Shown one piece after another: positions 2,400-37,188 of a DNA stretch of 37,188 nt. Both the position numbers and the translations under genes were made by a program. Source of the DNA: a virus; IMG/VR virus record IMGVR_UViG_3300045988_180981, positions 1 through 37,188 of that record; one strand, 5' to 3'. Under the pieces are notes generated by a model. That model was not told the origin of the DNA. It made no database searches and saw only the letters and a list, made by a program, of their open reading frames with translations. Numbering within the stretch: position 1 is the first letter of the stretch; the number at the start of each line of letters is the position of its first letter.

Positions 2400-2640
2400 C
2401 GTCAAACCAACGGGTTCAACGGCTAATCCAACGGTCAACGGTGACGGCCAACGGTGGTTTCAACGGCAACGGCAACGGTGACGGCCAACGGTGACGGCTA
2501 ACGGTGACGGCCAACGGCAACCGCTAACGGTAACGGCCAACGGCTACAGCAAACGGGTGGGGTAAACGGGAACGGCCAACGGTGGTTTTCTTTCCTCGTA
2601 CGGATAAAAGCAACGGCACGACCTAACGGTGACAACAACG
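2400..2640. repeat. Iteron-like array: about 20 copies of the pentamer AACGG, including four tandem 13-bp units AACGGTGACGGCC
   Basis: Counted by eye at 6-13-nt spacing. The distal part overlaps the 3' end of the rusA ORF. Confidence 0.7.
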
Positions 2641-3062
2641 GAGGGTGTCAAATCGTAGTGCTTCGCCATGCAAACATTAACCACTTGGGAATCGTCAACA
2701 AAGGCAATCCCATTCAATCCATCCAAAACGGCTTTCAAAACGTTGTCCAAGTCGGGCTTCTTCGTGGGCAATTCCTCACCGCTCAACTTCGCCAAGCCAT
2801 GCTTGTTCGGTTGCCCCTTCGAGTTGTAATCCGCCTTCTTCAAGCCGAACCACGCCATGACTTCCACCGCGATAGGCCCTGTGAGTGGCTTCGCCTCGGG
2901 GTACTTCTCCTTGAACTCATGGGCGAACCTCGCTTCGTAAGAGAGCGTTTTCGATGGGGTGTAAATGTGCGTGTGCCCCCCGAAGGAGGTTGCCCTAGGC
3001 CTTTGCTTTCCCATCGGCTCTCCCAAAACGTTAATCGTGTACTTAAATTCTTCTTCTGCCAT
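2544..3062 (-). CDS. rusA: RusA-family Holliday junction resolvase
   Basis: GKQRPR near the N-terminus and KPDLDNVLKAVLDGLNGIAFVDDSQV, which are RusA hallmarks. GAGGAG 10 nt upstream of the ATG at 3062. The C-terminus runs into the AACGG repeats, so the 3' extent is uncertain. Confidence 0.75.
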   Translation of the reverse strand: MAEEEFKYTINVLGEPMGKQRPRATSFGGHTHIYTPSKTLSYEARFAHEFKEKYPEAKPLTGPIAVEVMAWFGLKKADYNSKGQPNKHGLAKLSGEELPTKKPDLDNVLKAVLDGLNGIAFVDDSQVVNVCMAKHYDLTPSVVVTVRSCRCFYPYEERKPPLAVPVYPTRLL

Positions 3063-3076
3063 ATCTTCAAAACTCC

Positions 3077-3367
3077 TCAATAGCATTTATAACGCATTAT
3101 GTGGTTTTTATTCTCGTCCAAACCCTTCGATTCAAACCTTTCGAGCAATGTTGATTCTTTGATATTTCCTCGTGAGGTGTTTCGCACATCTTCGACTTTC
3201 AACAACTCAATGATTCCTTTGAACCCAGTGCTCATTTCCTGCTCGCACGTCTTGACGAAGCATAGGCTGGCGCCATCGCGGTCTTGCTCCTCATACTCGG
3301 TTACTTTGGTGAAGTCCGCGTATTCGGAAGTTGAGCGCACTATGTAATAAGGTACTTTCATTTCCAT
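3077..3367 (-). CDS. Hypothetical protein (~96 aa)
   Basis: AAGGAG 9 nt upstream of ATGGAAATG; start taken at the internal Met of track ORF 3077-3391. Confidence 0.55.
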   Translation of the reverse strand: MEMKVPYYIVRSTSEYADFTKVTEYEEQDRDGASLCFVKTCEQEMSTGFKGIIELLKVEDVRNTSRGNIKESTLLERFESKGLDENKNHIMRYKCY

Positions 3368-3486: not shown

Positions 3487-3945
3487 CTATTCCTTCCGCT
3501 CATTGCGCATGAGTTCATCCCAAACTTCTTGGTCGAACGTGTCGATGGACTTCACCGCCTTGGTTAGATTCCCATTGCGGATGTCGCCAATAGCACCGCT
3601 TTCCATCAATTCCCTCAAAGTCATTTTCGATGGCTTGTTGAAGATGAAGATAGGGCAATCTTTGTTGCACGCTATTCCCATGACGAACTCGCCCACGTTG
3701 CAAATCCCGATGTTGTGGCTACCCATGTTGTCATGGCCGATATTTCCATCGCCAACGTTGTAATCGCCAACGTTGTTCGATCCATAGTTGCCATTGCCTT
3801 TGTTTTGGCTTCCGTGGTTGCAATCGCCATGGTTGCAATCCCCAACGTTGAAGTCTCCCTCGTTCCAAGAGCCGTGGTTGCAATTGCCTCGGTTCTCAAC
3901 GCCCTTGTTGAGAGCGCCTAAGTTGTTGTCTCTAGTCTTGCTCAT
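3487..3945 (-). CDS. Pentapeptide-type beta-solenoid repeat protein: 17 consecutive N-x-G-x-x pentads; candidate DNA-mimic (Qnr/MfpA-like) protein
   Basis: Gly at residues 10,15,...,90 and Asn at 8,13,...,83 without a break. The 15-nt periodicity is also visible in the DNA. Start overlaps the upstream stop (ATGA at 3942-3945). Confidence 0.7.
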   Translation of the reverse strand: MSKTRDNNLGALNKGVENRGNCNHGSWNEGDFNVGDCNHGDCNHGSQNKGNGNYGSNNVGDYNVGDGNIGHDNMGSHNIGICNVGEFVMGIACNKDCPIFIFNKPSKMTLRELMESGAIGDIRNGNLTKAVKSIDTFDQEVWDELMRNERKE

Positions 3946-4427
3946 GCTTTTGAATCCTCCTCAATCGCTTTTTTCTCGCTCATCATTTTCTGGATTCTCC
4001 TCAATAAATCGGGGTGGGTGACAATCACCTCGTCAAAGTCTTCCGCTTCCGCTATCGCGAAGAAGATAGTCCTTGAGCTCAATTGCCTTCCCCATTCTCC
4101 TTCTTTCGGCAAATCCTCGAAATCGACACCTTCCCATTGTGTTGGGTCAAAATCAATGATGGCATGGGTTTTCAAGGTAACTGCTTCGATTGTCCTATCT
4201 TCGTTTCCTCTTTCGTCCGTAGATACGAAAACTTCAGCAATTTTAGTGGAATATGCCCTCATCAAAACGCTTCCATTATTCGCTTTCATGTTTCCCTTAA
4301 CCGTTTCCGCAATGTTGGATTCCGCCTCTTTTGCGAGTTCAAGGGATTCATATTCCCCTTCGAAGAAAGGCTTTTTCGCTCGGCTAATCATATCGCAAGC
4401 GGTCAATACGTATTTGTACATTTTCAA
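3942..4427 (-). CDS. Hypothetical acidic protein (161 aa)
   Basis: Minus-strand ORF, translationally coupled to the pentapeptide-repeat gene. Confidence 0.55.
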   Translation of the reverse strand: MKMYKYVLTACDMISRAKKPFFEGEYESLELAKEAESNIAETVKGNMKANNGSVLMRAYSTKIAEVFVSTDERGNEDRTIEAVTLKTHAIIDFDPTQWEGVDFEDLPKEGEWGRQLSSRTIFFAIAEAEDFDEVIVTHPDLLRRIQKMMSEKKAIEEDSKA

Positions 4428-4917: not shown

Positions 4918-4933
4918 GCATCTAATGGATTTT

Positions 4934-6379
4934 TCACAACAATTCTTTGAATATGTCCATCAGCACGTCCACAACGATGGAATCACCGGCGCAATGGTAT
5001 ATGGCAGAATCGCTCATCCCGATGGCGCGCATGGCTTGCTCGTCCTTGTCATTGAACCCCATGAGCCTCATGCATTCCAATGGGGTGAGTTTGCGAAGCT
5101 TCCCTTCGGATTGCGTGACAATGTCGATGGTTGTTTTAATCGTCTGGCTCATTCCGCTTTGCACGGTTCCGCGGTGGTATTGCATTCTCGTTCCACAATC
5201 GATTCCATCCCCTTCCTCGGCTTCTAGGTAACCCTTCTTGGTTGCGTTGCGGACGAGGATCTTCCCCATGAAGAACGGGGAAGTTGTGACACACGTGGAC
5301 AATCCGCCATCGCTGTAAACGCGATTGCCGAGCGATGGCTGCTTTCCATTCACCTTGGGGTTCAGGCATTCGGTGACAACCGTCCACCCAGAATCGAAAG
5401 AACCTTTGGCTTTTAATGTCCTTGCAACTCCCTTCTTCCCCGATTCTATGGAATTTTCGAAATCGCCTTTTCGGTCGAACCCCTTGGAATCTCCATAAAG
5501 CATGGTCTCAATAATTCTTGGGGATAGATTGTATTTTTGATCGGGGTTTTCCTCCAAAAGGTCGCGAAGCCTCTTGACGAGTTTCCTCTTCTTCGGGAAG
5601 TGGTATCCATATTCACCGAGAATGGAGACCATGAACACGCGGAGGCGGTTTTGGGGGATTCCATGGTCTTTGGCATTCACCTTCGCCCAATAGGAAGAAT
5701 ACCCAAGTTCCTCCAAGCGGTCTAGCCACTCGTTCCAAGGCTTGAGGTTTCTATCTCCGCAAACTCCGGGGACGTTCTCCATCAAGAGCACATCTGGCCT
5801 CTGCCCTGCTTCCTTAAGCTCACCGAGAAGCCTTTCGACCTCCCAAAGCAATCCCGACCTTGTGCCGCTACCCTTTTCCATGCCGGCCAATTTCCCCGCT
5901 TGGGAAAGGTCTTGGCATGGAAATGAATAAGTGAGAACGTAGCAATGCTGCCTATCTCCCTCCTTCTCGATGGATAAGCCGCTAGGGTGAATCTCCGAAA
6001 CGTTGGGGCAAAAGTCATTGCACGCGTCCATTGCTCCGCAAAGTTCCTCCAAAGCTTTTCTCCCCAATTTTTCCCTTTCTTCTTCCGATAGTGGGGAATT
6101 GTAATCCTTGGAAACACCGCAAGTTCTTTTTAAAAGTTCTTCCATTGGCGCTTCTTCCCACTTGCCTTTCTCGCACCTCCAGCCATTGTGGATTGCTGCG
6201 TAAGATCTAATGGAGGGAATTGCCCACTCGCACAAGCGCCATCTTTCAAAATCGGCATTGATGTTTTCCAAAGCTTTCGCTTGCGAACCAATACCACCGA
6301 ATAATTCGATGAGGCGGATTGGCTTGTTGATTTTGTATTCTCTTCTGCTTTGGGCGAACAGATTCAATTGCTCGTTCAT
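4934..6379 (-). CDS. DNA (cytosine-5) methyltransferase (orphan MTase, ~481 aa)
   Basis: Motif I LFGGIGS, motif IV SFPCQDLSQAG, motif VI LLMENVPG, motif VIII QNRLRVF, a long variable (TRD) region, then motif IX LTPLECMRLMGF and motif X GDSIVVDVL. Start at MNEQ, with GGAG upstream. Confidence 0.9.
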   Translation of the reverse strand: MNEQLNLFAQSRREYKINKPIRLIELFGGIGSQAKALENINADFERWRLCEWAIPSIRSYAAIHNGWRCEKGKWEEAPMEELLKRTCGVSKDYNSPLSEEEREKLGRKALEELCGAMDACNDFCPNVSEIHPSGLSIEKEGDRQHCYVLTYSFPCQDLSQAGKLAGMEKGSGTRSGLLWEVERLLGELKEAGQRPDVLLMENVPGVCGDRNLKPWNEWLDRLEELGYSSYWAKVNAKDHGIPQNRLRVFMVSILGEYGYHFPKKRKLVKRLRDLLEENPDQKYNLSPRIIETMLYGDSKGFDRKGDFENSIESGKKGVARTLKAKGSFDSGWTVVTECLNPKVNGKQPSLGNRVYSDGGLSTCVTTSPFFMGKILVRNATKKGYLEAEEGDGIDCGTRMQYHRGTVQSGMSQTIKTTIDIVTQSEGKLRKLTPLECMRLMGFNDKDEQAMRAIGMSDSAIYHCAGDSIVVDVLMDIFKELL

Positions 6380-10422: not shown

Positions 10423-10905
10423 TTAGAATGGCAAATCATCTTCCGACAATTCCTCAATGGCTTGCGAGCGCATATTCGGAATGGTTCTCTCTTGCGGTTT
10501 CGTTGGCGCTCTGGATACAAATTGCGCGGTCTCGATGGCTGGCGCGTAAGAGAGCGGTTGTTGTTCTTGCGGTTGCGGTTTGGCCTCGCCTTTTGGTTGC
10601 GCATGGCATAGGCACTCGACCCTATCCGCGTAGACCTTCACGCCCAATCGCTTCGAGCCGTCTTTTCCTTGGTATGGGTGAACCGACAAGCGACCGTCAA
10701 CGAGAATCAAGTCTCCCGTTTTTAGATACTTAATGCAATAGTCTCCCGTAGTGCCCATGGCGGTGCAATCGAGAAACATCGTCTCCTCCGCACCGTCTTT
10801 CGTCTTGTAGGATTGAGCGACCGTGAAAGCCACCCATCTATTTTGGTTTCCTGCCATTTCTGGCGCTTTGGTCAATCGACCTTCGTAGATAACTTTGTTA
10901 TACAT
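10423..10905 (-). CDS. ssb: Single-stranded DNA-binding protein
   Basis: N-terminal NKVIYEGRLTKAPEM OB-fold start, Gln/Pro-rich linker and the acidic C-terminal tip DDLPF. Confidence 0.85.
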   Translation of the reverse strand: MYNKVIYEGRLTKAPEMAGNQNRWVAFTVAQSYKTKDGAEETMFLDCTAMGTTGDYCIKYLKTGDLILVDGRLSVHPYQGKDGSKRLGVKVYADRVECLCHAQPKGEAKPQPQEQQPLSYAPAIETAQFVSRAPTKPQERTIPNMRSQAIEELSEDDLPF

Positions 10906-10988: not shown

Positions 10989-11813
10989 CTAAAAGGGCAT
11001 TTCGTCCTCCGTGACGAATTTGTTCGGCTGCTCGGCAGGTTTAGTCTCTGCTGGCTTTTGCACCTCGTAGGAAGCCTCGTACAATCCTTGTTGAGTGGGT
11101 TGCGGTTGATAGGACTTCTTAATCCCTTGCAATAGCATGATAGCCTTTTGAGCGTTCTCGAAGGTGTCGATGGGATTGTATTTGTATTTATCCACGAAGT
11201 CATTCAAGTTAAGCCCCCTCTCGCTCAATAGGCGGTTGATGAACGCCACTTGCTTGTCGGTTGCTTTCCCGTAAGTGTGGGAAGCAGGTCTAACCGCATA
11301 CCCTGCGTTGGCGGTGTACGGGTTCGGCTCTTTAGCTTCGGCTTCCTCAAACTTCGTTCCCTTGGGGGCTTCTAGTTTGCCCTCGTAGATATACAAGCCA
11401 ACTCCGAAGCGAGCCACGCATTTGGTTAGACCGCGCTGGATGGAATCGTTGATGTCTCTTCCATCGATTTTGTCCATTGGCATGGAATCGTTTCTATTGT
11501 CCATGATGGGGAAGGTTTCAACGCGCTCGACACCGAGAGCCGACACCGCGCATTTCACGAACCCAAACCCATTCACGTTCCACACGGGGTTGCCTAACGC
11601 GTCCTCGATAATGCGGAAGTTCGCGTCCGGGTAGATCTCGAGCATTGCCCTCCAAGCGACCGCCCAATTCAAGTAGGCTAGTTGGACGGTGACCGTTTTA
11701 CCGCTTTTCGTGTTGTATTTGATTTCCTTCCAATCGATGTCTTCTTTCGAAGCCCTCCAAGCACTTGCCTTGGCGAACTTATCGGCCAATAAATCCAAAT
11801 ATTCTTTATCCAT
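10989..11813 (-). CDS. Rad52/Sak-like single-strand annealing protein with an SSB-like acidic C-terminal tip (DEMPF)
   Basis: VQLAYLNWAVAWRAML resembles the LxWA.AW motif of phage Sak (DUF1071) proteins. Placed between a DUF1351-like gene and ssb. Confidence 0.55.
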   Translation of the reverse strand: MDKEYLDLLADKFAKASAWRASKEDIDWKEIKYNTKSGKTVTVQLAYLNWAVAWRAMLEIYPDANFRIIEDALGNPVWNVNGFGFVKCAVSALGVERVETFPIMDNRNDSMPMDKIDGRDINDSIQRGLTKCVARFGVGLYIYEGKLEAPKGTKFEEAEAKEPNPYTANAGYAVRPASHTYGKATDKQVAFINRLLSERGLNLNDFVDKYKYNPIDTFENAQKAIMLLQGIKKSYQPQPTQQGLYEASYEVQKPAETKPAEQPNKFVTEDEMPF

Positions 11814-12454: not shown

Positions 12455-12901
12455 CTAGTTGCAAGGGCTATTTTCCAAGTTTTCCACAAAGGAATCCACA
12501 AAGCGCTTGGCGAGCAATTCGCCCTCTTCGGCATTGTCCGCCATAATCCCTTGCCCGTCCTTGCGGATTTTCTTCGTAATGCAAGATACCTTCACCAAGG
12601 CTTTCATGGCTTTGTCTTTGAGGGTCTTGCGGTAGGCTAGCGTTTCCTCCAAGTTGCCCATGTGGTAGGTGAAGTTGTCGATGATTATTACTTTGTCCGC
12701 TCCCCAATCGCAATTGATGGCGGTTACATCGCTCCAGATTTGAAAGCATTTGTCATGCACCTTTGGGTTGTCGGAGTAATTGTAACCGTCCGAATAGGTC
12801 GCTTTCTGGTAGTTCGACACGATTTCCTCTTGGGTGGTGACTTTGCCTTGAAGAGAGTTTTTCAAGATGAGGTTGTAGGTCGCTAATTGTCTATTTGTCA
12901 T
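12455..12901 (-). CDS. Hypothetical protein (148 aa)
   Basis: Minus-strand ORF. Confidence 0.5.
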   Translation of the reverse strand: MTNRQLATYNLILKNSLQGKVTTQEEIVSNYQKATYSDGYNYSDNPKVHDKCFQIWSDVTAINCDWGADKVIIIDNFTYHMGNLEETLAYRKTLKDKAMKALVKVSCITKKIRKDGQGIMADNAEEGELLAKRFVDSFVENLENSPCN

Positions 12902-13448
12902 TTTCGTTCACCATTATCTTTTCGCCATCGGGCGTTTTCACCCAAATGGGCTTATCGTCTTTCAACATCACAATGTATTTCTCAACTGGCGGATAATATG
13001 GCATTGTTATCGGGAACATCTTGTTCACCAATCTCGAACCAACCGAGGAAATGAATGGTATTTTCTTGGGGTCTTCTTCGTCATAGCAAACAACCCTATC
13101 GACATCGTTGTAAGTCACTTTCCCATCAAGTGTTTCCCTTCTGAAAACGGAACACATCCTATTGCAAGAAAGATCGGATTTGAGACCCTGTTCTTTTAGG
13201 TAGCGTGGGTCTTCTTGCGTTATCCCCTCTTGGTCTAAAAAGTCTTCATCGACAATCGGGGTGAGGGGTAAGTCATTCAACAATCTCGTGAGAAGATGAG
13301 TAGTAATATTCCAACTAAATCCGCTATGGCTGTCTTTTGCCATCGACATAAACGCTCTTAAGGCGCTATCCGCACACATTTGTCCGTAAATGTCTTGTTT
13401 TTTCTTAAAGAGTTCGACTTCTCTTTTCGCTTCTTCGCTCATTGTCAT
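12891..13448 (-). CDS. Hypothetical protein (185 aa)
   Basis: AAAGGAG 8 nt upstream of ATGACAATG. Confidence 0.55.
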   Translation of the reverse strand: MTMSEEAKREVELFKKKQDIYGQMCADSALRAFMSMAKDSHSGFSWNITTHLLTRLLNDLPLTPIVDEDFLDQEGITQEDPRYLKEQGLKSDLSCNRMCSVFRRETLDGKVTYNDVDRVVCYDEEDPKKIPFISSVGSRLVNKMFPITMPYYPPVEKYIVMLKDDKPIWVKTPDGEKIMVNENDK

Positions 13449-14648: not shown

Positions 14649-15308
14649 TCAATCCTTTATATATTCGTAAGTTCCGGTCTCTTTGTTAAAGCGGAATTCG
14701 TTGGCATTTCCCCATAGTTTGAACGAGAGTTCGTAAGCCTCTTTTGAATCCGCAACGAATTGCTCAAAGGATACGCACGTTCCGTTTTTGTATTCGGCTC
14801 TTCCAGTGACACGTCCATTGTCTTCGTCCGCCCATTCATGCTCGAACGAGAAATCTTTGTGCATTTCCGCAAGTTTTTGAATAATGGGGGTAGGCGGTGT
14901 CCAAGCGGTGAGAAGCTCAATCGTGTCGCCATCGATTTTCGTTTCCCCTGCGTTCCATTTACATCCCCAATGATGAATACTCCAATCGAACCAAGTGGCG
15001 AATCCGTATTTTTGGAGATTCTCGAACGCGCGTTTTCCAAGTTTAATGGTGTCTTCCAAATTCCCTTCGTTTCTCTTTTTCAATTCTTCGACTTTGTGTT
15101 CATCAATTATCTTTTCTGGAGAGGTGATGGAAGCGATATATAACTTAAGCCCGTCTCTCGTTCTAGGGCCACATTCTATTCTCAAATCATCGGGCATTGT
15201 CTCAATGGTATTGAAGTCGAAGTCGCCATCGTTGTCGAGGTGCTTTTGGATTATTGATTTGGCGTTCTTTCCTTTTATGGTCAATCTATTTTTGATGAAA
15301 TTCGGCAT
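14649..15308 (-). CDS. Hypothetical protein (219 aa) with a conserved W.DW..HHWGCKWNA motif
   Basis: Motif seen; the family could not be named with confidence. Confidence 0.45.
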   Translation of the reverse strand: MPNFIKNRLTIKGKNAKSIIQKHLDNDGDFDFNTIETMPDDLRIECGPRTRDGLKLYIASITSPEKIIDEHKVEELKKRNEGNLEDTIKLGKRAFENLQKYGFATWFDWSIHHWGCKWNAGETKIDGDTIELLTAWTPPTPIIQKLAEMHKDFSFEHEWADEDNGRVTGRAEYKNGTCVSFEQFVADSKEAYELSFKLWGNANEFRFNKETGTYEYIKD

Positions 15309-15574: not shown

Positions 15575-15616
15575 AAAAAAATTTTAAAAAACAAAAAGCG
15601 CCCATGTTGAGCGCTA
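15575..15616 (-). terminator. Rho-independent terminator overlapping the stop codon of gene 15614-16645
   Basis: AGCGC-9 nt-GCGCU hairpin followed by UUUUUGUUUUUUAAAAUUUUUUU on the minus strand. Confidence 0.5.
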
Positions 15617-16645
15617 TTTCATTTCAATCCCAATGGCTTCAGATTCGGGGATTACCACATTCTTTATGGCTTCCTCCCTCGCCTTTTCCTCGGCTTCGTA
15701 TTGAGCCTTTGCCAACTCTTCGTAGGTTTTTGGAGTGAACTCTTTCTTGTCGATACACGATTGGAATCCACGAAGAATCTCGGTCTTGTTTTCGAGCACT
15801 TGAGCGCGGATTTTAACGTCAATCACGCTCGTTGCCCAACCAGAGCAAAATGAGGTCACGAACGCGGTCAAACGGGCTATGAGGTTCAACCACGCTTGCG
15901 CATTGTTTCCGCTCATGAACTCTCGGACGGTCATGGTAGACCACAAGAACGAGATGAAGAGGGAAGCGACAATCTTCAAGGCTCGGTTCACTCCCTTGTT
16001 GATTTTGATTTCTTTCGCAAAGGCTTTCGGTTGCTCGAGAATATCGCGGTTGCTCGCCTTGCCGTGCGCGGATAGGTAATACACGTAGGAAGGGGCTTCG
16101 AGTTTCAAAGACCCGTCAAACACGTATTTCAATACCTTGGCTTGGCGCTCGGTCACCTTCTTGATGATTGTGCCATCGTCTTTGCGGATGGATTGGACTT
16201 CTAGCATGGGGAGTTCCCCTTCTTCGAGATGGTCAACTATTGCGTGCGCCCATTCCTCATCGAACCCCTCGTCCACCAAGAAGTTGATTTTCTTAATGTA
16301 TGCTCGCTTCTCCTTGTACCATTGGTAGAATTGGGGGAAATAGATTTCGATCGGCTCAATCGAGCGCCTAACCGCCATGTATTCTCCCAAGTTGGTTTGA
16401 TAGATTCCGCCCACTTTTTCGAGTTGCCTATCCTCGCCAACGCTTTCGCCCATAACCAAGCCAAAGACCATGATTCCGACAAGGATCAATGAGTTACAAA
16501 TGTATTCCTTGAGATTGAGCTTTCCGGTGTCGAAGGTGATGTTCGCCACCGTCATGAACACGATGAGAGCAATGCCCATCACGATGGTGAAGCCCTTCAT
16601 GGCTTTCTTGAGGTTGAAGTTCTTTTTGAGATTGTCTTTGTTCAT
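15614..16645 (-). CDS. Polytopic membrane protein (343 aa); second gene of the early operon; candidate superinfection-exclusion or abortive-infection-like protein
   Basis: Two N-terminal and about two C-terminal hydrophobic helices; no motif recognised. Confidence 0.5.
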   Translation of the reverse strand: MNKDNLKKNFNLKKAMKGFTIVMGIALIVFMTVANITFDTGKLNLKEYICNSLILVGIMVFGLVMGESVGEDRQLEKVGGIYQTNLGEYMAVRRSIEPIEIYFPQFYQWYKEKRAYIKKINFLVDEGFDEEWAHAIVDHLEEGELPMLEVQSIRKDDGTIIKKVTERQAKVLKYVFDGSLKLEAPSYVYYLSAHGKASNRDILEQPKAFAKEIKINKGVNRALKIVASLFISFLWSTMTVREFMSGNNAQAWLNLIARLTAFVTSFCSGWATSVIDVKIRAQVLENKTEILRGFQSCIDKKEFTPKTYEELAKAQYEAEEKAREEAIKNVVIPESEAIGIEMK

Positions 16646-16911
16646 ATATCAACGCTCCTATCCACCCACCAAAGGATGAAAGCCCCCATGCCATAGAGAC
16701 CTAACGCAACGTAGGCCAAGATTGCGTAATCGCTCGTGAACCACTTTAAGACGGCTTCCCAACCATCGAGAAGCCCATAGCCCACCACGAAGCAAGCAAG
16801 GCCGAATATTAGGAAGCACCCCGTTGCTAGGTACGCTATCCATTTTTTCTTTTTGCTTTCCATATTGGCTATGATAGCCCCTAGGCTTTCCCGTTGCAAG
16901 TTTTCTCCCAT
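16642..16911 (-). CDS. Small membrane protein (89 aa, 2 TM helices); first early gene
   Basis: ATGA overlap with the downstream gene; hydrophobic. Confidence 0.5.
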   Translation of the reverse strand: MGENLQRESLGAIIANMESKKKKWIAYLATGCFLIFGLACFVVGYGLLDGWEAVLKWFTSDYAILAYVALGLYGMGAFILWWVDRSVDI

Positions 16912-17220
16912 TTGGTTTCCCCTAGGACAAAAGCACTCTCCCTTAATGGTTTTCTAGGGGAAAGAAAAAAGAGAACGAAAAGAAGGTTCTCTTAAGAATC
17001 TTTTAAGAATAAGTTAGAGTGTTTAATTGAACAATACTTACTCATATATGCAATTGCTTACTATGAACGCAATTAAAAAAGAAATCCGTTACTTTCTTTA
17101 ATCGTGCGCGAAAAAAGCCGTATCCTTTCCAATTCATGAGCAGGAGCGGAGTTGCCCCTTACGGGGCAAAGAACGAACGCGCACGGAAAAAAGAATTTTC
17201 TAACGGACTTTCATGTGGTA

Positions 17221-17302
17221 GTTTTCCACTTTTCCACAAAAGTTTTCCACTTTTCCACATTGAATCAAAAAGTTTTCCACAATAACCAAAAGTTTTCCAC
17301 AT
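17221..17302 (+). promoter_or_regulatory. Cluster of six direct DnaA-box-like 9-mers: TTTTCCACA x4 (match TTATCCACA/TT[AT]TNCACA) and TTTTCCACT x2; candidate origin of replication
   Basis: Copies at 17222-17230, 17230-17238, 17243-17251, 17251-17259, 17273-17281 and 17293-17301. A degenerate GGTTTTCCAT lies at 17337. An adjacent AT-rich stretch (16980-17100) is a possible DNA-unwinding element. Confidence 0.6.
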
Positions 17303-17508
17303 TTGCAAAAATAGTCTCTAGGGGGTCATAGAGAAGGTTTTCCATCACTTGTATTTTCTGGGAAGCCTTTTCGATTTACGGAGGTTGTTTTTAGGGGCGG
17401 TAGCGTTCTTCCGAATGGAATAGTCCTCCATTGATTGAGCGCAAATGCCCAAGAAAGCGTTTTAACGGCCCGTTGAAGCGTTTCGTGACTTCGATGGACA
17501 AATTCCCC

Positions 17509-17542
17509 GTACAAAAGAAAAAGAGGGCTTAAATCGCCCTCT
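17509..17542 (-). terminator. Rho-independent terminator ending the late operon
   Basis: AGAGGGC-7 nt-GCCCUCU (7-bp stem) followed by UUUUUCUUUUU on the minus strand, right after the stop at 17551. Confidence 0.7.
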
Positions 17543-17550
17543 AGAAGGTT

Positions 17551-19457: not shown

Positions 19458-19653
19458 TTTCCTTCTCCTCCTGCTCTTTCAAAAGAGCGTTGTATTCTTC
19501 CATCGTGATTTCCTCGAAGTCGCTCGGCTTCGAGAACTTCCCGATGAAGATTTCGTAGTCGGAGAGCAATTCCCCGTCCTTCGATTTGAGGGCATAGCCC
19601 TCTTTGGGGGCTAACCCCCTAGTCTTTTCGTTGTAAATCATGCCAATGTCCAT
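19432..19653 (-). CDS. Small hypothetical protein (73 aa)
   Basis: ORF in operon context; SD is weak. Confidence 0.35.
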   Translation of the reverse strand: MDIGMIYNEKTRGLAPKEGYALKSKDGELLSDYEIFIGKFSKPSDFEEITMEEYNALLKEQEEKENADRHEIE

Positions 19654-20330
19654 CCTTTGTTCGTGGCTATAGCCTTGTCCTCGTCCGTGAGTTTGTCGAG
19701 GTTCGTAGAACCCATTTTTAGGGTTTTCGTTCCGCTCGTTTGTGCTTTGAGGTTGCCGATGATTTCGAGCAGAGCCTCACGGGTGAATTTGGTGGAATAG
19801 TGAATGTCGAGCTGCGCGTTGATGTTAACCATGTGGATTGCTTCTAGTTTTTTGCAAGAATTGAACATGGAATTCAGGTTCGTAACGTTCGATGCGTCGA
19901 ATCGCGGAACGGTTGTGAGGCTGGAGCAATAGTAGAACATACTATTCATGTTCTCCACTTTCGATGTATCGAACAATGGAACGGTGGTGAGGTTTGAGCA
20001 ACTATTGAACATGTAAGACATGTTCGTCACTTTCGATGTGTCGAACAAAGGTACGGTGGTGAGTTTGAAGCAATAATTGAACATGGAATTCATGTTCTCC
20101 ACTTTCGATGTATCGAACAATGGAACGGTGGTGAGGTTTGAGCAATTAATGAACATGGAACTCATGTCCGTCACATTAGCGGTATCGTCATACTTCCAGC
20201 ACCCTTCAAATGAGGAGGCTAAACTTTGCGCGCACTTACCCCCAGCCTCGAAGAAAGCCTTCATCGATGTGATTTGCTTCTCAACGGTGTTCGTCACCGC
20301 GACTTTTTTGCTTCCTAAGTACAATGCCAT
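19638..20330 (-). CDS. BspA/DUF285-type leucine-rich-repeat protein; five ~23-aa repeats (FDTSKVTNMSYMFNSCSNLTTVPL); receptor-binding accessory candidate
   Basis: Repeat consensus D.S.V.NM..MF..C..LTTVP; AGGAGGTG SD before the ATG at 20330. Confidence 0.7.
   Translation of the reverse strand: MALYLGSKKVAVTNTVEKQITSMKAFFEAGGKCAQSLASSFEGCWKYDDTANVTDMSSMFINCSNLTTVPLFDTSKVENMNSMFNYCFKLTTVPLFDTSKVTNMSYMFNSCSNLTTVPLFDTSKVENMNSMFYYCSSLTTVPRFDASNVTNLNSMFNSCKKLEAIHMVNINAQLDIHYSTKFTREALLEIIGNLKAQTSGTKTLKMGSTNLDKLTDEDKAIATNKGWTLA
19850..20160. repeat. About 4.5 tandem 69-bp nucleotide repeats (75-100% identical) encoding the LRR units
   Basis: The 55-nt stretch CATGTTCTCCACTTTCGATGTATCGAACAATGGAACGGTGGTGAGGTTTGAGCAA is identical at 19955-20009 and 20093-20147. 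Confidence 0.7.
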
Positions 20331-20332
20331 AA

Positions 20333-22225
20333 TCACCACCTCCTAATGGTAACGGAAGAACCGCTCTCGGGAATATCGCTCCACGATGGTGCTCCGTCCA
20401 CTACGGAGAGGAATTTTCCGTTTTGCGTAGAATCGGCTGCAAGCAAAAAACCAGTTGGCAAAGCAATTACCGAACCGCTTTTAGTTGTTCCTTCAATCAT
20501 AACAACATAACTTATAGCGCCTGAAAAAATGAATCCTGCGTACAATTTCGTCTCTGAGGCGAAAACGGTCATTAAAATTTTTCCAAGGTCTGGAATATTC
20601 AAAAAGAAAATCTCATCATTTGGCTCTGACCCAATGCTAAAGTCGGTTTGATTTCCACTAGTGCTTGTAATAGTAGCGTCAATCGTCTTGATTTTGCCTT
20701 CGTATTCCTTGTCCGCGTATGCCTTCGTGATGAGTTCGTAATTCAACACGTGAGCGATTTCGGGGTCTTCGCTCACTTGGGAAGAACGACCGTAAATCGC
20801 CCCATTATCTGCCCTGATGGGAATGGAATTTCCGATATTTTGAAGGCTCGCTTGGATGAACTTGTCAGCGTAAGACGATTCCGCGCCCCCTGCTTCGCAA
20901 GCGTAAACAAGGGTTTCGGGAGTAACCGAAAGCCCAGATTTCCTATTTAATTTCTCCGATTGAAGAGCGGTGATGTTGTCCGCGTTCCTCTTGCCCTTAT
21001 CGCCTGCGTAAGCGGTCTCGGAGGTTTCGCCCAACGCTAGGGAAGAGCCGATTTCAACGTAGACCGTTCCGCCCCAACGATAGGTTTTGTTCGTGTCCAA
21101 TGCGATGTAAATCTTGTTCACTTCGCCCGTGGTTGGGAAATCGTTGAAGGTTGGAAATTCCAAAACGTCCGACACGTAGGACGGAAGTTGGGAAGTGGGG
21201 ATTTTGCCGTCAAAGTCCAAGGAAGCGACACCCCTGCCTCCTCTTTGCCCAAGCAATCGCGAAGTGAGGAAAATTTCCCCTGATACTGGCATATAACTAT
21301 CGGCCACCCAACGTATTAGGTTGTTGTTGAGCGAAAGCCCGTCCAAAGTGAATACCGCGGAAGTAGCCATAGCCGAGGGACTTCTTCCATTGAACGTGAT
21401 TTTCGGAGAATTGATGAAGGAACGCAACGTTAAATTTGCAGGGCCAACATAGTTCCCCTCAAACTTGAATATCGGCTCGAATTGCTCAACTCCTGCGACT
21501 TCTTGCATTTGCTTAAGCGTTTCGGAATATAGCGTGAAATCAACGGGCGCTCCCTCACCTTTGGCATACCATGCGAAAGAGCCTTCGCCTTCCGCGTTTT
21601 TCTTTCTAAGGAACTTGTCCACCGCCAATCCATCGAGCGAAACCCCTTCGAGTTTGTCTCCGATTTTTTGGAAAACGGAACTCGTCTCGCTGTCCGCGGT
21701 TTCCTTCGCAAGAATCATTTGCCCCTCGGATAGGTTTGGCAAGTCCTCGGTCGCTTCCGCGAGCGTATCGTAGGAGCGCATATTCGAGCGAGCGTATTGG
21801 AGTTGGTAGTCCGCCATCATCGCCCGAAGAGCCTCGTATTGGTCTTGGGTGATGGGGTCTCCTCCCCTCCCCGTTGTCTCGTTTACGTATAGCGTTACGG
21901 GGTAGGTGAATAGCGTGGTCTTGTCCGAGTTGAAAACTTGGATGGAAAGAGCCACGTCTCCTTGGTATTCCGTAACCACCGCGGTTATGGTGATTCGGTA
22001 GCCCTCATAGACCCCCGTTGATGTCTTTATTTTGTTGGTGAAAGCTCCCGTTAGGGAAACAACTTCGTTGTTGGGCAATTTGAAGTTCCCGTCCGCGGTG
22101 TATTCGTCCACGCTTTTGCCAACAATGGAAACGTCAATGAAATTGACACCATCCGAATGTTGGTTTATGTAGTCCGTCAACTGGCTTTCGGAAACCGATC
22201 CGTCTTTATTGAAGATAATGTACAT
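20333..22225 (-). CDS. Tail fibre / receptor-binding protein candidate (630 aa)
   Basis: Beta-rich, Gly/Ser/Thr-rich; sits in the tail module directly upstream of the LRR protein. Confidence 0.4.
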   Translation of the reverse strand: MYIIFNKDGSVSESQLTDYINQHSDGVNFIDVSIVGKSVDEYTADGNFKLPNNEVVSLTGAFTNKIKTSTGVYEGYRITITAVVTEYQGDVALSIQVFNSDKTTLFTYPVTLYVNETTGRGGDPITQDQYEALRAMMADYQLQYARSNMRSYDTLAEATEDLPNLSEGQMILAKETADSETSSVFQKIGDKLEGVSLDGLAVDKFLRKKNAEGEGSFAWYAKGEGAPVDFTLYSETLKQMQEVAGVEQFEPIFKFEGNYVGPANLTLRSFINSPKITFNGRSPSAMATSAVFTLDGLSLNNNLIRWVADSYMPVSGEIFLTSRLLGQRGGRGVASLDFDGKIPTSQLPSYVSDVLEFPTFNDFPTTGEVNKIYIALDTNKTYRWGGTVYVEIGSSLALGETSETAYAGDKGKRNADNITALQSEKLNRKSGLSVTPETLVYACEAGGAESSYADKFIQASLQNIGNSIPIRADNGAIYGRSSQVSEDPEIAHVLNYELITKAYADKEYEGKIKTIDATITSTSGNQTDFSIGSEPNDEIFFLNIPDLGKILMTVFASETKLYAGFIFSGAISYVVMIEGTTKSGSVIALPTGFLLAADSTQNGKFLSVVDGAPSWSDIPESGSSVTIRRW

Positions 22226-36950: not shown

Positions 36951-37069
36951 CTCGCGCACCCCCGTAGCGAATAGTTCATTTATTGAACAATCTATAACGC
37001 GTATGCGCACATATGCTCGCACGGGGCTAGGCGGAGTTATCTAGGGAATGGGAATTACTTAAGGAAATA

Positions 37070-37188
37070 CCAACATCGCACGCGCACACGGGCGATTTGG
37101 GATTTACGAAGTAAAGCCCATGAAAGTAATGCCACCGCGGAAAAAAGGGAAAAAAATTCGAAGGGGTTGGGTAGCCCCGAAAAAAAGG
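37070..37188. repeat. Right copy of the 119-bp direct terminal repeat. Either genuine terminal redundancy or overlap from a circular or circularly permuted assembly.
   Basis: Identical to 1-119. The window stops where the repeat stops, so the true repeat could be longer. Confidence 0.9.

Follow-up and report, generated by a model that had tools for sequence, protein, structure and literature searches.

In Firmicutes the chromosomal origin, oriC, consists of a pair of DnaA boxes, a GC cluster, more than three DnaA-trios (3′-[G/A]A[T/A]-5′) and an AT-rich DNA unwinding element (DUE) (PMC6669920; PMC7561715), and unwinding in Bacillus subtilis needs correctly oriented boxes next to the trios (PMC6669920). 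B. subtilis also has DnaA-box clusters (DBCs) outside the unwinding site, often adjacent to promoters, which bind DnaA without unwinding the DNA (PMC4447404; PMC6669920). Here we describe an array of six co-oriented DnaA-box-like 9-mers in IMG/VR virus record IMGVR_UViG_3300045988_180981, of which the whole stretch of 37,188 nucleotides was analysed and is referred to below as the window. Comparison with related phages identifies the array as a genuine, conserved DnaA-box cluster. We tentatively propose that it is a docking site for DnaA at a non-canonical, host-dependent origin coupled to early transcription, a reading that we prefer while holding it to be somewhat short of probable.

Auxiliary DnaA boxes accompany the iterons of the replicons P1 (oriR/incA), RK2 and pSC101, and DnaA-box clusters are known in P1 and lambda. 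Lactococcal phages of the c2 type (Ceduovirus) have their origin in non-coding DNA that separates the early from the late gene cluster, where three unrelated types occur within an otherwise conserved phage group; plasmids carrying a c2 ori need no protein of the phage to replicate, and an early transcript that is structured and non-coding takes part (PMC7150918). Clusters of DnaA boxes in phage genomes are already known from T5, whose injection-stop region, a large untranslated region, contains a conserved and precisely placed set of boxes that has been argued not to be an origin (10.1101/866236). In phages phi29 and Nf, boxes for the host protein Spo0A modulate early transcription and replication (PMC2731898).

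The boxes of the array, and one doublet located outside it, are the following.

17217-17301, plus strand: array of six co-oriented DnaA-box-like 9-mers, with boxes at 17222-17301; the gene-sense strand reads TGTGGAAAA
17230-17238, plus strand: exact box TTTTCCACA, overlapped on its 5′ side by a one-mismatch copy TTTTCCACT at 17222-17230
17251-17259, plus strand: exact box TTTTCCACA, overlapped on its 5′ side by a one-mismatch copy TTTTCCACT at 17243-17251
17273-17281, plus strand: exact box TTTTCCACA
17293-17301, plus strand: exact box TTTTCCACA
12471-12488, plus strand: outlying doublet TTTTCCAAG + TTTTCCACA at the 3′ end of the gene for a 148-aa protein, about 60 bp upstream of DUF1351-Sak-SSB; compatible with chance

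All six boxes of the array share the pattern TTTTCCAC[A/T] and the same orientation, and the extended repeat unit is AAAAGTTTTCCAC. A preliminary description of the window, made from its letters, had reported four copies plus two one-mismatch copies within 80 bp, and this is what we find at 17222-17301. The four exact boxes are spaced 21, 22 and 20 bp from start to start, about two helical turns, which places them on one face of the helix. Each TTTTCCACT copy is offset by 8 bp from the next exact box and overlaps it by 1 nt; therefore, probably only four sites are occupied at once. Compared with the consensus TTWTNCACA / TTATNCACA, the 9-mers have zero or one mismatch (four exact, two with one), and with six boxes in 80 bp the array falls within the published definition of a cluster, at least three boxes with a mean spacing below 100 bp (PMC7561715).

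The signal of the array lies in clustering alone. Genome-wide, the 9-mer is not enriched (15 occurrences at up to one mismatch versus 17.3 expected). Six copies of one 8-mer per 100 bp compare with a maximum of three for any 8-mer in 30 Markov-1 simulated genomes. The window contains six TTWTNCACA matches, all on the plus strand, where about 1.1 would be expected per strand; two of them, at 4930 and 12480, are outside the array. We considered these two boxes as a possible regulon and rejected the idea, since their number equals the chance expectation.

B. subtilis DBCs, incA/incB and E. coli datA resemble the array in having several consensus or one-mismatch 9-mers less than 100 bp apart and in lacking trios. 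The array differs from chromosomal DBCs in its location on a virulent-looking phage genome and in its six co-oriented boxes with two-turn phasing. In T5 the box pairs are 3 bp apart, within inverted repeats of the terminal repeat, and the phage encodes its own replication proteins, whereas the boxes of the window are direct, phased repeats in the middle of the circularly closed genome of an initiator-less phage. The likeness to phi29 and Nf is that sites for a host master regulator are present on a lytic Firmicute phage, with a different host protein and a different motif.

The array is located between the late genes and the next operon. The genes that matter for the comparison with other phages are given here.

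18129-17551, minus strand: holin-like protein, last late gene ahead of the terminator
17522-17542, minus strand: intrinsic terminator closing the late (structural/lysis) operon, conserved in L001 and L053
16642-16911, minus strand: 89-aa membrane protein, first gene past the gap, which its ATG at 16911 bounds
15614-16645, minus strand: 343-aa protein, second gene past the gap and query for finding relatives
10989-11813, minus strand: Sak annealase (profile match), a recombination/replication protein
10423-10905, minus strand: SSB (profile match), a recombination/replication protein
2544-3086, minus strand: RusA Holliday-junction resolvase (profile match)

The gene-free gap extends over 639 bp (16912-17550), from the terminator (17542-17522) to the ATG at 16911, in agreement with the 640 bp between late terminator and early operon that had been described. 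Homologues of the 343-aa protein form 44 clusters at 34-98% identity. Phages in the range of 52-67% share one order: late genes, terminator, a gap of 550-980 bp, membrane protein, 343-aa homologue, Sak, SSB, helix-turn-helix (HTH) protein and RusA; no helicase or primase family was recorded for any of these relatives. Four other lineages, whose neighbouring protein is 52-59% identical to that of the window, contain six to seven boxes in the corresponding gap when CTTTCCACA is counted, and four to seven by the strict pattern TTNTCCACN. These boxes read TTATCCACA, TTGTCCACA, TTTTCCACA, TTCTCCACA or CTTTCCACA and occur in both orientations.

L047 (contig of a metagenome-assembled genome (MAG) labelled Firmicutes bacterium CAG:95) and L062: seven boxes in both orientations, TTGTCCACA, TTATCCACA twice, TTTTCCACA three times and TTGTCCACA
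L058/59: six to seven boxes in the gap
L056/57: four strict boxes and three CTTTCCACA in the gap

Only position 3 of the box varies (A/T/G/C), leaving aside the C at position 1 of CTTTCCACA and the T that ends each of the window's two overlapping copies. In an alignment of four phages (L047, L062, L058 and L056) the box cores are invariant and the spacer sequences have diverged, with the spacer lengths kept at 69, 15, 15, 50, 9 and 18 bp. Conserved cores between diverged spacers are the footprint expected for sites of a conserved protein with DnaA-box specificity, and the residues by which DnaA recognises its box are conserved from Firmicutes to E. coli (PMC7561715). The earlier assignment of the 9-mers as DnaA boxes is thus borne out by relatives that carry the perfect TTATCCACA and its position-3 variants with invariant cores at the same junction, and by the recurrence of the array style in unrelated phages and a chromid.

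These unrelated elements were found by BLAST of the array. Capybara microvirus Cap1_SP_128 (L090, MK496718.1; 4.5-kb single-stranded DNA) has eight co-oriented TTTTCCACA at 2439-2640, in a 500-bp non-coding region before the Rep gene; its array includes AAGTTTTCCACA units and an abutting doublet, and five coding genes are annotated in its record, for two capsid proteins, one replication initiator and two hypothetical proteins. Two human-gut gokushoviruses carry a similar array, and that of the gut microvirus L091 (KT264792.1) is located at 1837-2020. In a phage group of 35% GC, represented by L008 (IMGVR_UViG_3300029256_000193), two boxes plus two inverted boxes TTTTCCAC are located in an intergenic region at 5721-5830; L002, L004 and L023 are similar to this box region, and the group has no match in the cultured-phage collection. 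Unlike in the window, the arrays of the microvirus, the gokushoviruses and L008 are followed by trio-like runs (CTATTATTAccaCTA; CTACTACTACgaCTACAA; CTACTACTAC, the last in L008) and AT-rich DNA, and the layout predicted for the gut microviruses resembles the basal unwinding system of bacteria.

Boxes are also present on larger replicons. The Oscillospiraceae chromid pMM35_01 of Vescimonas fastidiosa (L092, NZ_AP023416.1) contains a three-box cluster TTTTGCACTTTTCCACAaagTTTTCCACC at 4001-4030, in the mutL-mutS spacer; the AAGTTTTCCAC flavour hints at a feature of the host lineage. The circular element IMGVR_UViG_3300045988_091192 (137,771 bp, here the 137-kb element), whose identifier shares the sample prefix 3300045988 with a near-twin contig of the window, has about eight (A)AGTTTTCCACA units spaced by 11 bp, one inverted TGTGGAGAA and, after the boxes, four to five iterons ATTTTCATTTTCAA, in an array that spans the contig ends (L038 12489-12561 and L012 1-200). 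This array looks like a plasmid or phage-plasmid origin. Considered as a ParA/ribbon-helix-helix (RHH) centromere, it was flanked by open reading frames (ORFs) without a Pfam match. In IMG/VR as a whole, two exact boxes within 13 nt occur in more than 119 stretches; among the first 119, at least 35 have four or more boxes within 300 bp.

Since unrelated elements carry the same style of array, its binder is almost certainly a host protein, and no protein of the window shows a pattern of presence and absence that tracks the boxes. A shared host factor is the economical explanation of the recurring arrays, and we consider it very probable that host DnaA binds the array of the window. The MAG labels of the relatives' contigs (Firmicutes bacterium CAG:95, uncultured Bacilli and uncultured Clostridia) hint at the host.

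Besides the array, three elements of the gap bear on its function.

16986-17085, no strand: AT-rich stretch, 75% A+T; candidate unwinding element or promoter/leader region
17100-17195, minus strand: structured element flanked by the array and the AT-rich stretch; RNA fold of −37.5 kcal/mol, z = −2.27
17279-17308, minus strand: best sigma-70-like candidate on the gene strand in a relaxed scan, TTGCAA (17308-17303), 18-nt spacer, TATTGT (17284-17279); a weak candidate

No other 100-bp window of the genome is as unstable as the AT-rich stretch, which has a dG of −113.5 versus a mean of −138.9 (standard deviation 7.3, that is 3.5 standard deviations below). The core of the structured element is a hairpin at 17152-17170, TTGCCCC GTAA GGGGCAA. 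In the near-twin its stem has a compensatory double change, from GCCCC/GGGGC to GCCAC/GTGGC. The element could be a leader RNA, an origin RNA or a DNA cruciform; searches against Rfam, at the gathering threshold and, for the gap, at a permissive one, and for tRNAs gave nothing credible. As a separate observation, the hairpin sequence recurs in L053, where a T-run follows it.

The near-twin is contig IMGVR_UViG_3300045988_177591, and OBLI01000697.1 is 99% identical. Compared with the near-twin, the array has one difference in 85 bp (1.2%), located in a spacer, and none of the 52 box positions differs. Divergence is 12.3% in the segment from the terminator to the array, 8.5% between the array and the AT-rich DNA, and 2.1% in the AT-rich/T-rich segment 16912-17099. 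The array and the least stable DNA are thus both under constraint.

Several results speak for an origin. Bases 1-119 of the window are identical to 37070-37188, and the window is therefore a complete, circularly closed phage genome of about 37,069 bp (37.07 kb). The 28 larger ORFs downstream of the gap were scanned against PHROGs and Pfam, and ten of them against NCBIfam; several small ORFs of the downstream block and most late genes lay outside these scans. Among the scanned ORFs we found no initiator, helicase, primase, helicase loader or polymerase, and no Rep, DnaD-like or organiser family. Searches for a hidden initiator among the conserved unknowns (PHROGs, Pfam, NCBIfam and PDB sequences) were all negative. 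The gene content given in the preliminary description, with SSB, a Rad52-like annealase and RusA and without initiator, helicase, primase or polymerase, is therefore confirmed for the ORFs scanned, the annealase being Sak. The phage must start replication somehow while encoding no recognisable initiator, which counts in favor of an origin, as does the location of both the array and the least stable DNA in the sole large non-coding region inside the gene map.

In the mechanism that we envisage, the headful-packaged genome would circularise, after which host DnaA would fill the four phased TTTTCCACA sites on one helix face. DnaA would then recruit the host helicase-loading chain (in Firmicutes DnaD/DnaB/DnaI-DnaC) to the easily melted, transcribed DNA at 16986-17195, resulting in a theta-type start by host proteins alone, and Sak, SSB and RusA of the phage would continue by recombination-dependent or concatemer-forming synthesis. 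Without DnaA-trios, opening would need help from transcription or DNA structure, as in c2-type origins. The window shares with c2-type phages the junction location, the type-switching of the gap and, in the window, a structured element in the same relative place, and by analogy the c2 precedent would fit the element at 17100-17195. The gene clusters are divergent in c2 phages and co-directional in the window. To our knowledge, DnaA boxes have not been reported as part of c2 origins.

Several results argue against an origin, in the first place against an oriC-like one. The nearest box is 135 bp away from the AT-rich stretch, which is located 5′ of TTTTCCACA, and the boxes point away from it. 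The adjacent AT-rich stretch had been put forward as a possible unwinding element; the stretch itself is real, being the least stable of the genome, but it is 135 bp off and on the wrong side, the reverse of the order box, trio, DUE that Firmicutes require (PMC6669920; PMC7561715). No DnaA-trio run adjoins the boxes of the window on either strand (the sole 3-unit runs in the window are A-rich stretches 214, 146 and 260 bp from the boxes), and a direct reading of the relatives' gaps revealed no trios. Bulk GC skew shifts near 17 kb. At 4-fold degenerate sites there is no shift (−0.117 late versus −0.094 early, p = 0.26); the change at the gap is an effect of amino-acid and codon composition and not of mutational strand bias, and GC skew was therefore rejected as evidence for an origin. 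In addition, the candidate TTGCAA-18-TATTGT overlaps two boxes, and in L047, L062 and L058 the centre of the last box is located 78-79 bp before the predicted −10 (63 bp in L056). L050-55 and L067-68, by the neighbouring protein the closest sister lineages (about 65-67% identity), have no box cluster and share the Sak/SSB/RusA set, so that boxes are not indispensable to the replication strategy of the clade. With recombination-dependent replication by Sak/SSB and host PriA, the phage might not need a dedicated origin, and arrays that adjoin promoters fit transcription control equally well.

Thus, the locus resembles Firmicute oriC in having boxes and an unstable AT-rich stretch in one non-coding region, and is not a member of that class: trios after a box pair and GC cluster, an AT-rich DUE downstream of trios and a switch of strand bias are all three absent, the AT-rich DNA is misplaced and there is no dnaA gene. 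The earlier view that host DnaA fires an oriC-like origin consequently stands in one part only, since use of host DnaA is likely and the oriC-like architecture (trios, geometry and skew) is missing. With respect to iteron-type origins, phased direct repeats are found next to AT-rich DNA (21/22/20-bp phasing, with the AT-rich minimum in the gap), and a cognate element-encoded initiator that co-varies with the iterons is not. The objection raised by the box-less sister lineages is neutralised because the c2 group has several unrelated ori types. At the position of the boxes, L053-55 have five direct repeats ATTGTAAAGAA(A) in pairs spaced by 12 bp (L053 8925-9040); TTCTTTACA, the reverse complement of this repeat, is two mismatches away from TTWTNCACA. 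L050-52 have yet other repeats at the same junction. The type of junction repeat thus appears to switch among relatives.

Control of the downstream operon by DnaA is the first alternative to a host-dependent origin. Host DnaA would act as a transcription factor that switches this operon up or down and so ties the phage programme to the replication status of the host. DnaA has this role at dnaA, sda and other Firmicute promoters. We judge this explanation unlikely, and nevertheless a serious rival because of the distance of the boxes to the −10 in the relatives and their overlap with the candidate promoter in the window. The predicted promoter of L047, L062 and L058 reads TTGGAA/TTAGGC-17-TACAAT/TATAAT, and box geometry as well as promoter distance are conserved among these lineages. 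Other points in its favor are that two boxes of the window overlap the best candidate promoter, that clusters of DnaA boxes which bind DnaA outside oriC usually lack trios and in some cases act in transcription (PMC4447404; PMC6669920), that ATTGTAAAGAA occurs five times at the same promoter-proximal site in L053-55, as for exchangeable regulator sites, and that the Spo0A boxes of phi29 and Nf provide a precedent for host-regulator sites governing a lytic phage (PMC2731898). On the other hand, a strict sigma-70 scan found no minus-strand promoter within the gap of the window, its one hit (16899-16871) being inside the first downstream gene. The boxes of the window either overlap the candidate or are more than 200 bp upstream of the alternatives, whereas box centres in the relatives are about 85-270 bp upstream of the start; this difference in position implies opposite regulatory signs. 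Moreover, in the microvirus and the other phages trio-like runs and AT-rich DNA come after the array, which points to replication there, and transcription control leaves the replication start of an initiator-less phage unexplained. We also observed that in L047 (2189-2204), L062 (9773-9790) and L056 (9772-9785) only 6-8 nt separate the end of the predicted −10 (TACAAT or TAGAAT) from the ATG with which the first gene past the gap starts, which suggests a leaderless mRNA.

The more distant L060/L061, L063 and L064 have the membrane protein and the 343-aa homologue directly after the holin-like gene, without a gap. The non-coding region of the window's clade therefore splits a block that elsewhere is one late/lysis-type unit, and labelling the 343-aa protein as an early gene is uncertain because the gap is absent in these phages. 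An argument for orientation independence based on module inversion was dropped, as the T-rich tract is on the same strand in the window and its relatives.

A second alternative is that the repeats are iterons for a protein other than DnaA, for example a 148-aa winged-helix protein, a 72-aa HTH protein or another host factor, in which case the likeness to DnaA boxes would be coincidence or mimicry. The direct repeats with a periodicity of about 21 bp and the extended unit AAAAGTTTTCCAC are compatible with such a binder, the overlapping 8-bp doublets would be awkward for two DnaA monomers, and the L053 lineage has in ATTGTAAAGAA a related non-DnaA repeat, as though specificity had shifted. This explanation is nevertheless improbable. 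In the relatives the DnaA consensus is perfect and occurs in both orientations, most variation falling on position 3, identical arrays are present in a microvirus, the 137-kb element and a chromid that share no such phage protein, and an arbitrary 9-mer falls within one mismatch of TTATCCACA by chance at about 1e-4. The pattern of similarity of the 72-aa HTH protein does not track the boxes, and neither of two properties of the 148-aa protein, described next, fits a role as binder.

12455-12901, minus strand: 148-aa winged-helix protein, always upstream of DUF1351-Sak-SSB

The model of this protein (predicted local distance difference test, pLDDT, 85) contains a predicted winged helix and a long helix. 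It belongs to a large uncharacterised family of more than 100 clusters without a Pfam domain; H49, D50, C52 and W56 are invariant or nearly so among close relatives, and in IMG/VR no homologue was found outside the near-twin. Its putative recognition (third) helix is acidic and hydrophobic, and is nearly identical in L050 and L053 despite their different repeats while being variable among box-bearing phages. The protein was therefore rejected as the binder of the array, its third helix having this composition and showing no co-variation with the type of repeat. Among the proteins examined it is the sole clade-conserved candidate at the level of predicted fold for a DNA-binding or organiser protein of the phage, and a role as organiser is possible.

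A third alternative is that the array is a sink. Amplified genomes (hundreds of copies with four strong boxes each) would titrate host DnaA or alter its nucleotide state, blocking host initiation and freeing replisome components. Multicopy cloned DnaA-box regions of B. subtilis oriC are reported to inhibit host initiation, and datA and DARS alter the nucleotide state of DnaA. A sink would be independent of position and orientation, which fits the different placement and orientation of the array in the window and its relatives, and would account for strong phased boxes without an unwinding apparatus; for the T5 boxes, too, a use other than as an origin has been proposed (10.1101/866236). However, conserved spacing and promoter distance in three lineages would be needless for titration, the benefit in a short lytic cycle is not obvious, and sister lineages manage without an array. 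We regard this explanation as quite improbable. Finally, a repeat without function, generated in an AT-rich spacer by slippage during replication or by duplication, can practically be dismissed: part of the array did arise by duplication, as a 21-bp unit is present twice (duplicated exactly once, 17216-17236 versus 17237-17257, 81% identical), but the boxes are unchanged relative to the near-twin while their flanks diverged by 8-12%, independent arrays with invariant cores exist in four other lineages, and the simulations produced no comparable cluster.

A second class of repeats is located downstream of RusA.

2417-2590, plus strand: about 13 tandem 13-bp units AACGGTGACGGCC (sense strand CCGTTnnCCGTT), mostly non-coding, directly downstream of RusA

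A comparable tandem array follows RusA in L058 (18530-18673) and L062 (19057-19187), and in the gaps of L047 and L062 repeats with the motif of this tandem array (CCGTTGCCGTTG, with copies of CACCGTTGCCGTTG) are interleaved with the DnaA boxes. The 13-bp-unit array is absent from the box-less lineages L050-55. A second cis element linked to the box array is a possible interpretation of these repeats, and boxes with CCGTTGCCGTTG repeats would form a layout like that of iteron replicons. The interleaved boxes of L047/L062, together with the separate large tandem array, recall oriR plus incA. The difference is that no Rep gene is identifiable, and that 14.7 kb separate the two classes of repeats in the window.

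The remaining genes and elements of the window can be summarized as follows. Essentially all genes are on the minus strand, and a comparison with cultured phages found no DNA similarity to the window; its TerL is merely 21-25% identical to terminases of Streptococcus and Bacillus phages. No match to an integrase family was found among the scanned ORFs.

36979-36161, minus strand: terS, first in transcription order, followed by terL, portal and tail genes

The operon downstream of the gap starts with the 89-aa and 343-aa proteins, extends to 1021 and further encodes an ASCH protein, DUF1351, the 72-aa HTH protein and a DNA methyltransferase. It also carries counter-defence or odd cargo: a Tad3-like Thoeris inhibitor (PF25185, 6e-15) at 12891-13448, an Api92-like DUF1281_C protein at 14649-15308 and a pentapeptide-repeat protein at 3487-3945. 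A 58-nt repeat (83% identical) with a GC-rich hairpin (GCCCCC...GGGGGC) is present at 1649-1706 and 2035-2092, directly upstream of two consecutive small genes near the operon end, and is possibly a regulatory RNA or attenuator element. In the late region, four tandem 72-bp repeats (66-82% identical) at 19846-20205, within a 233-aa late gene (19638-20339), probably encode a repeated 24-aa module of a tail or fibre protein. A second large non-coding region (1-620, plus 36980-37188) is located upstream of terS; in region 1-620 the plus strand is extremely purine-rich, with G and A runs, a GC skew of +0.10 and an AT skew of +0.21, unlike the remaining genome. The region upstream of terS could hold a pac site or a late promoter.

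Many small siphophages of Firmicutes have a recombinase, SSB and a resolvase but lack an initiator, helicase and primase, and outside a few dairy-phage models the start of their replication is largely unexplained. The clade of the window provides a testable candidate, with a conserved putative DnaA docking site at the late/early junction and natural "knock-out" sisters that have other repeats. Our literature searches turned up no initiator-less siphophage clade of Firmicutes for which DnaA boxes had been described as the main candidate for an origin or a sensor. If the array regulates transcription or titrates DnaA instead, it would be a host-sensing or takeover device made of DNA only, and the literature searched describes no device of such kind for Firmicute phages. 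Should DnaA bind the array and fire or gate the programme of the phage, host range and the timing of infection would hinge on the state of the initiator of the host. In that case, arrays of DnaA boxes could also predict origins and hosts of metagenomic phages, and their presence in gut microviruses as well would indicate that parasitism of the initiator is a general strategy. More broadly, initiator-less gut phages may build origins from host DnaA boxes and replicate under control of the host initiator, both in this siphovirus clade and, independently, in microviruses and other uncultivated phages with co-oriented TTTTCCACA arrays; the variant of the clade would be trio-less and coupled to an early promoter and CCGTT arrays, with a junction that switches between unrelated ori types. 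We consider this wider proposal conceivable and rather doubtful in its full form.

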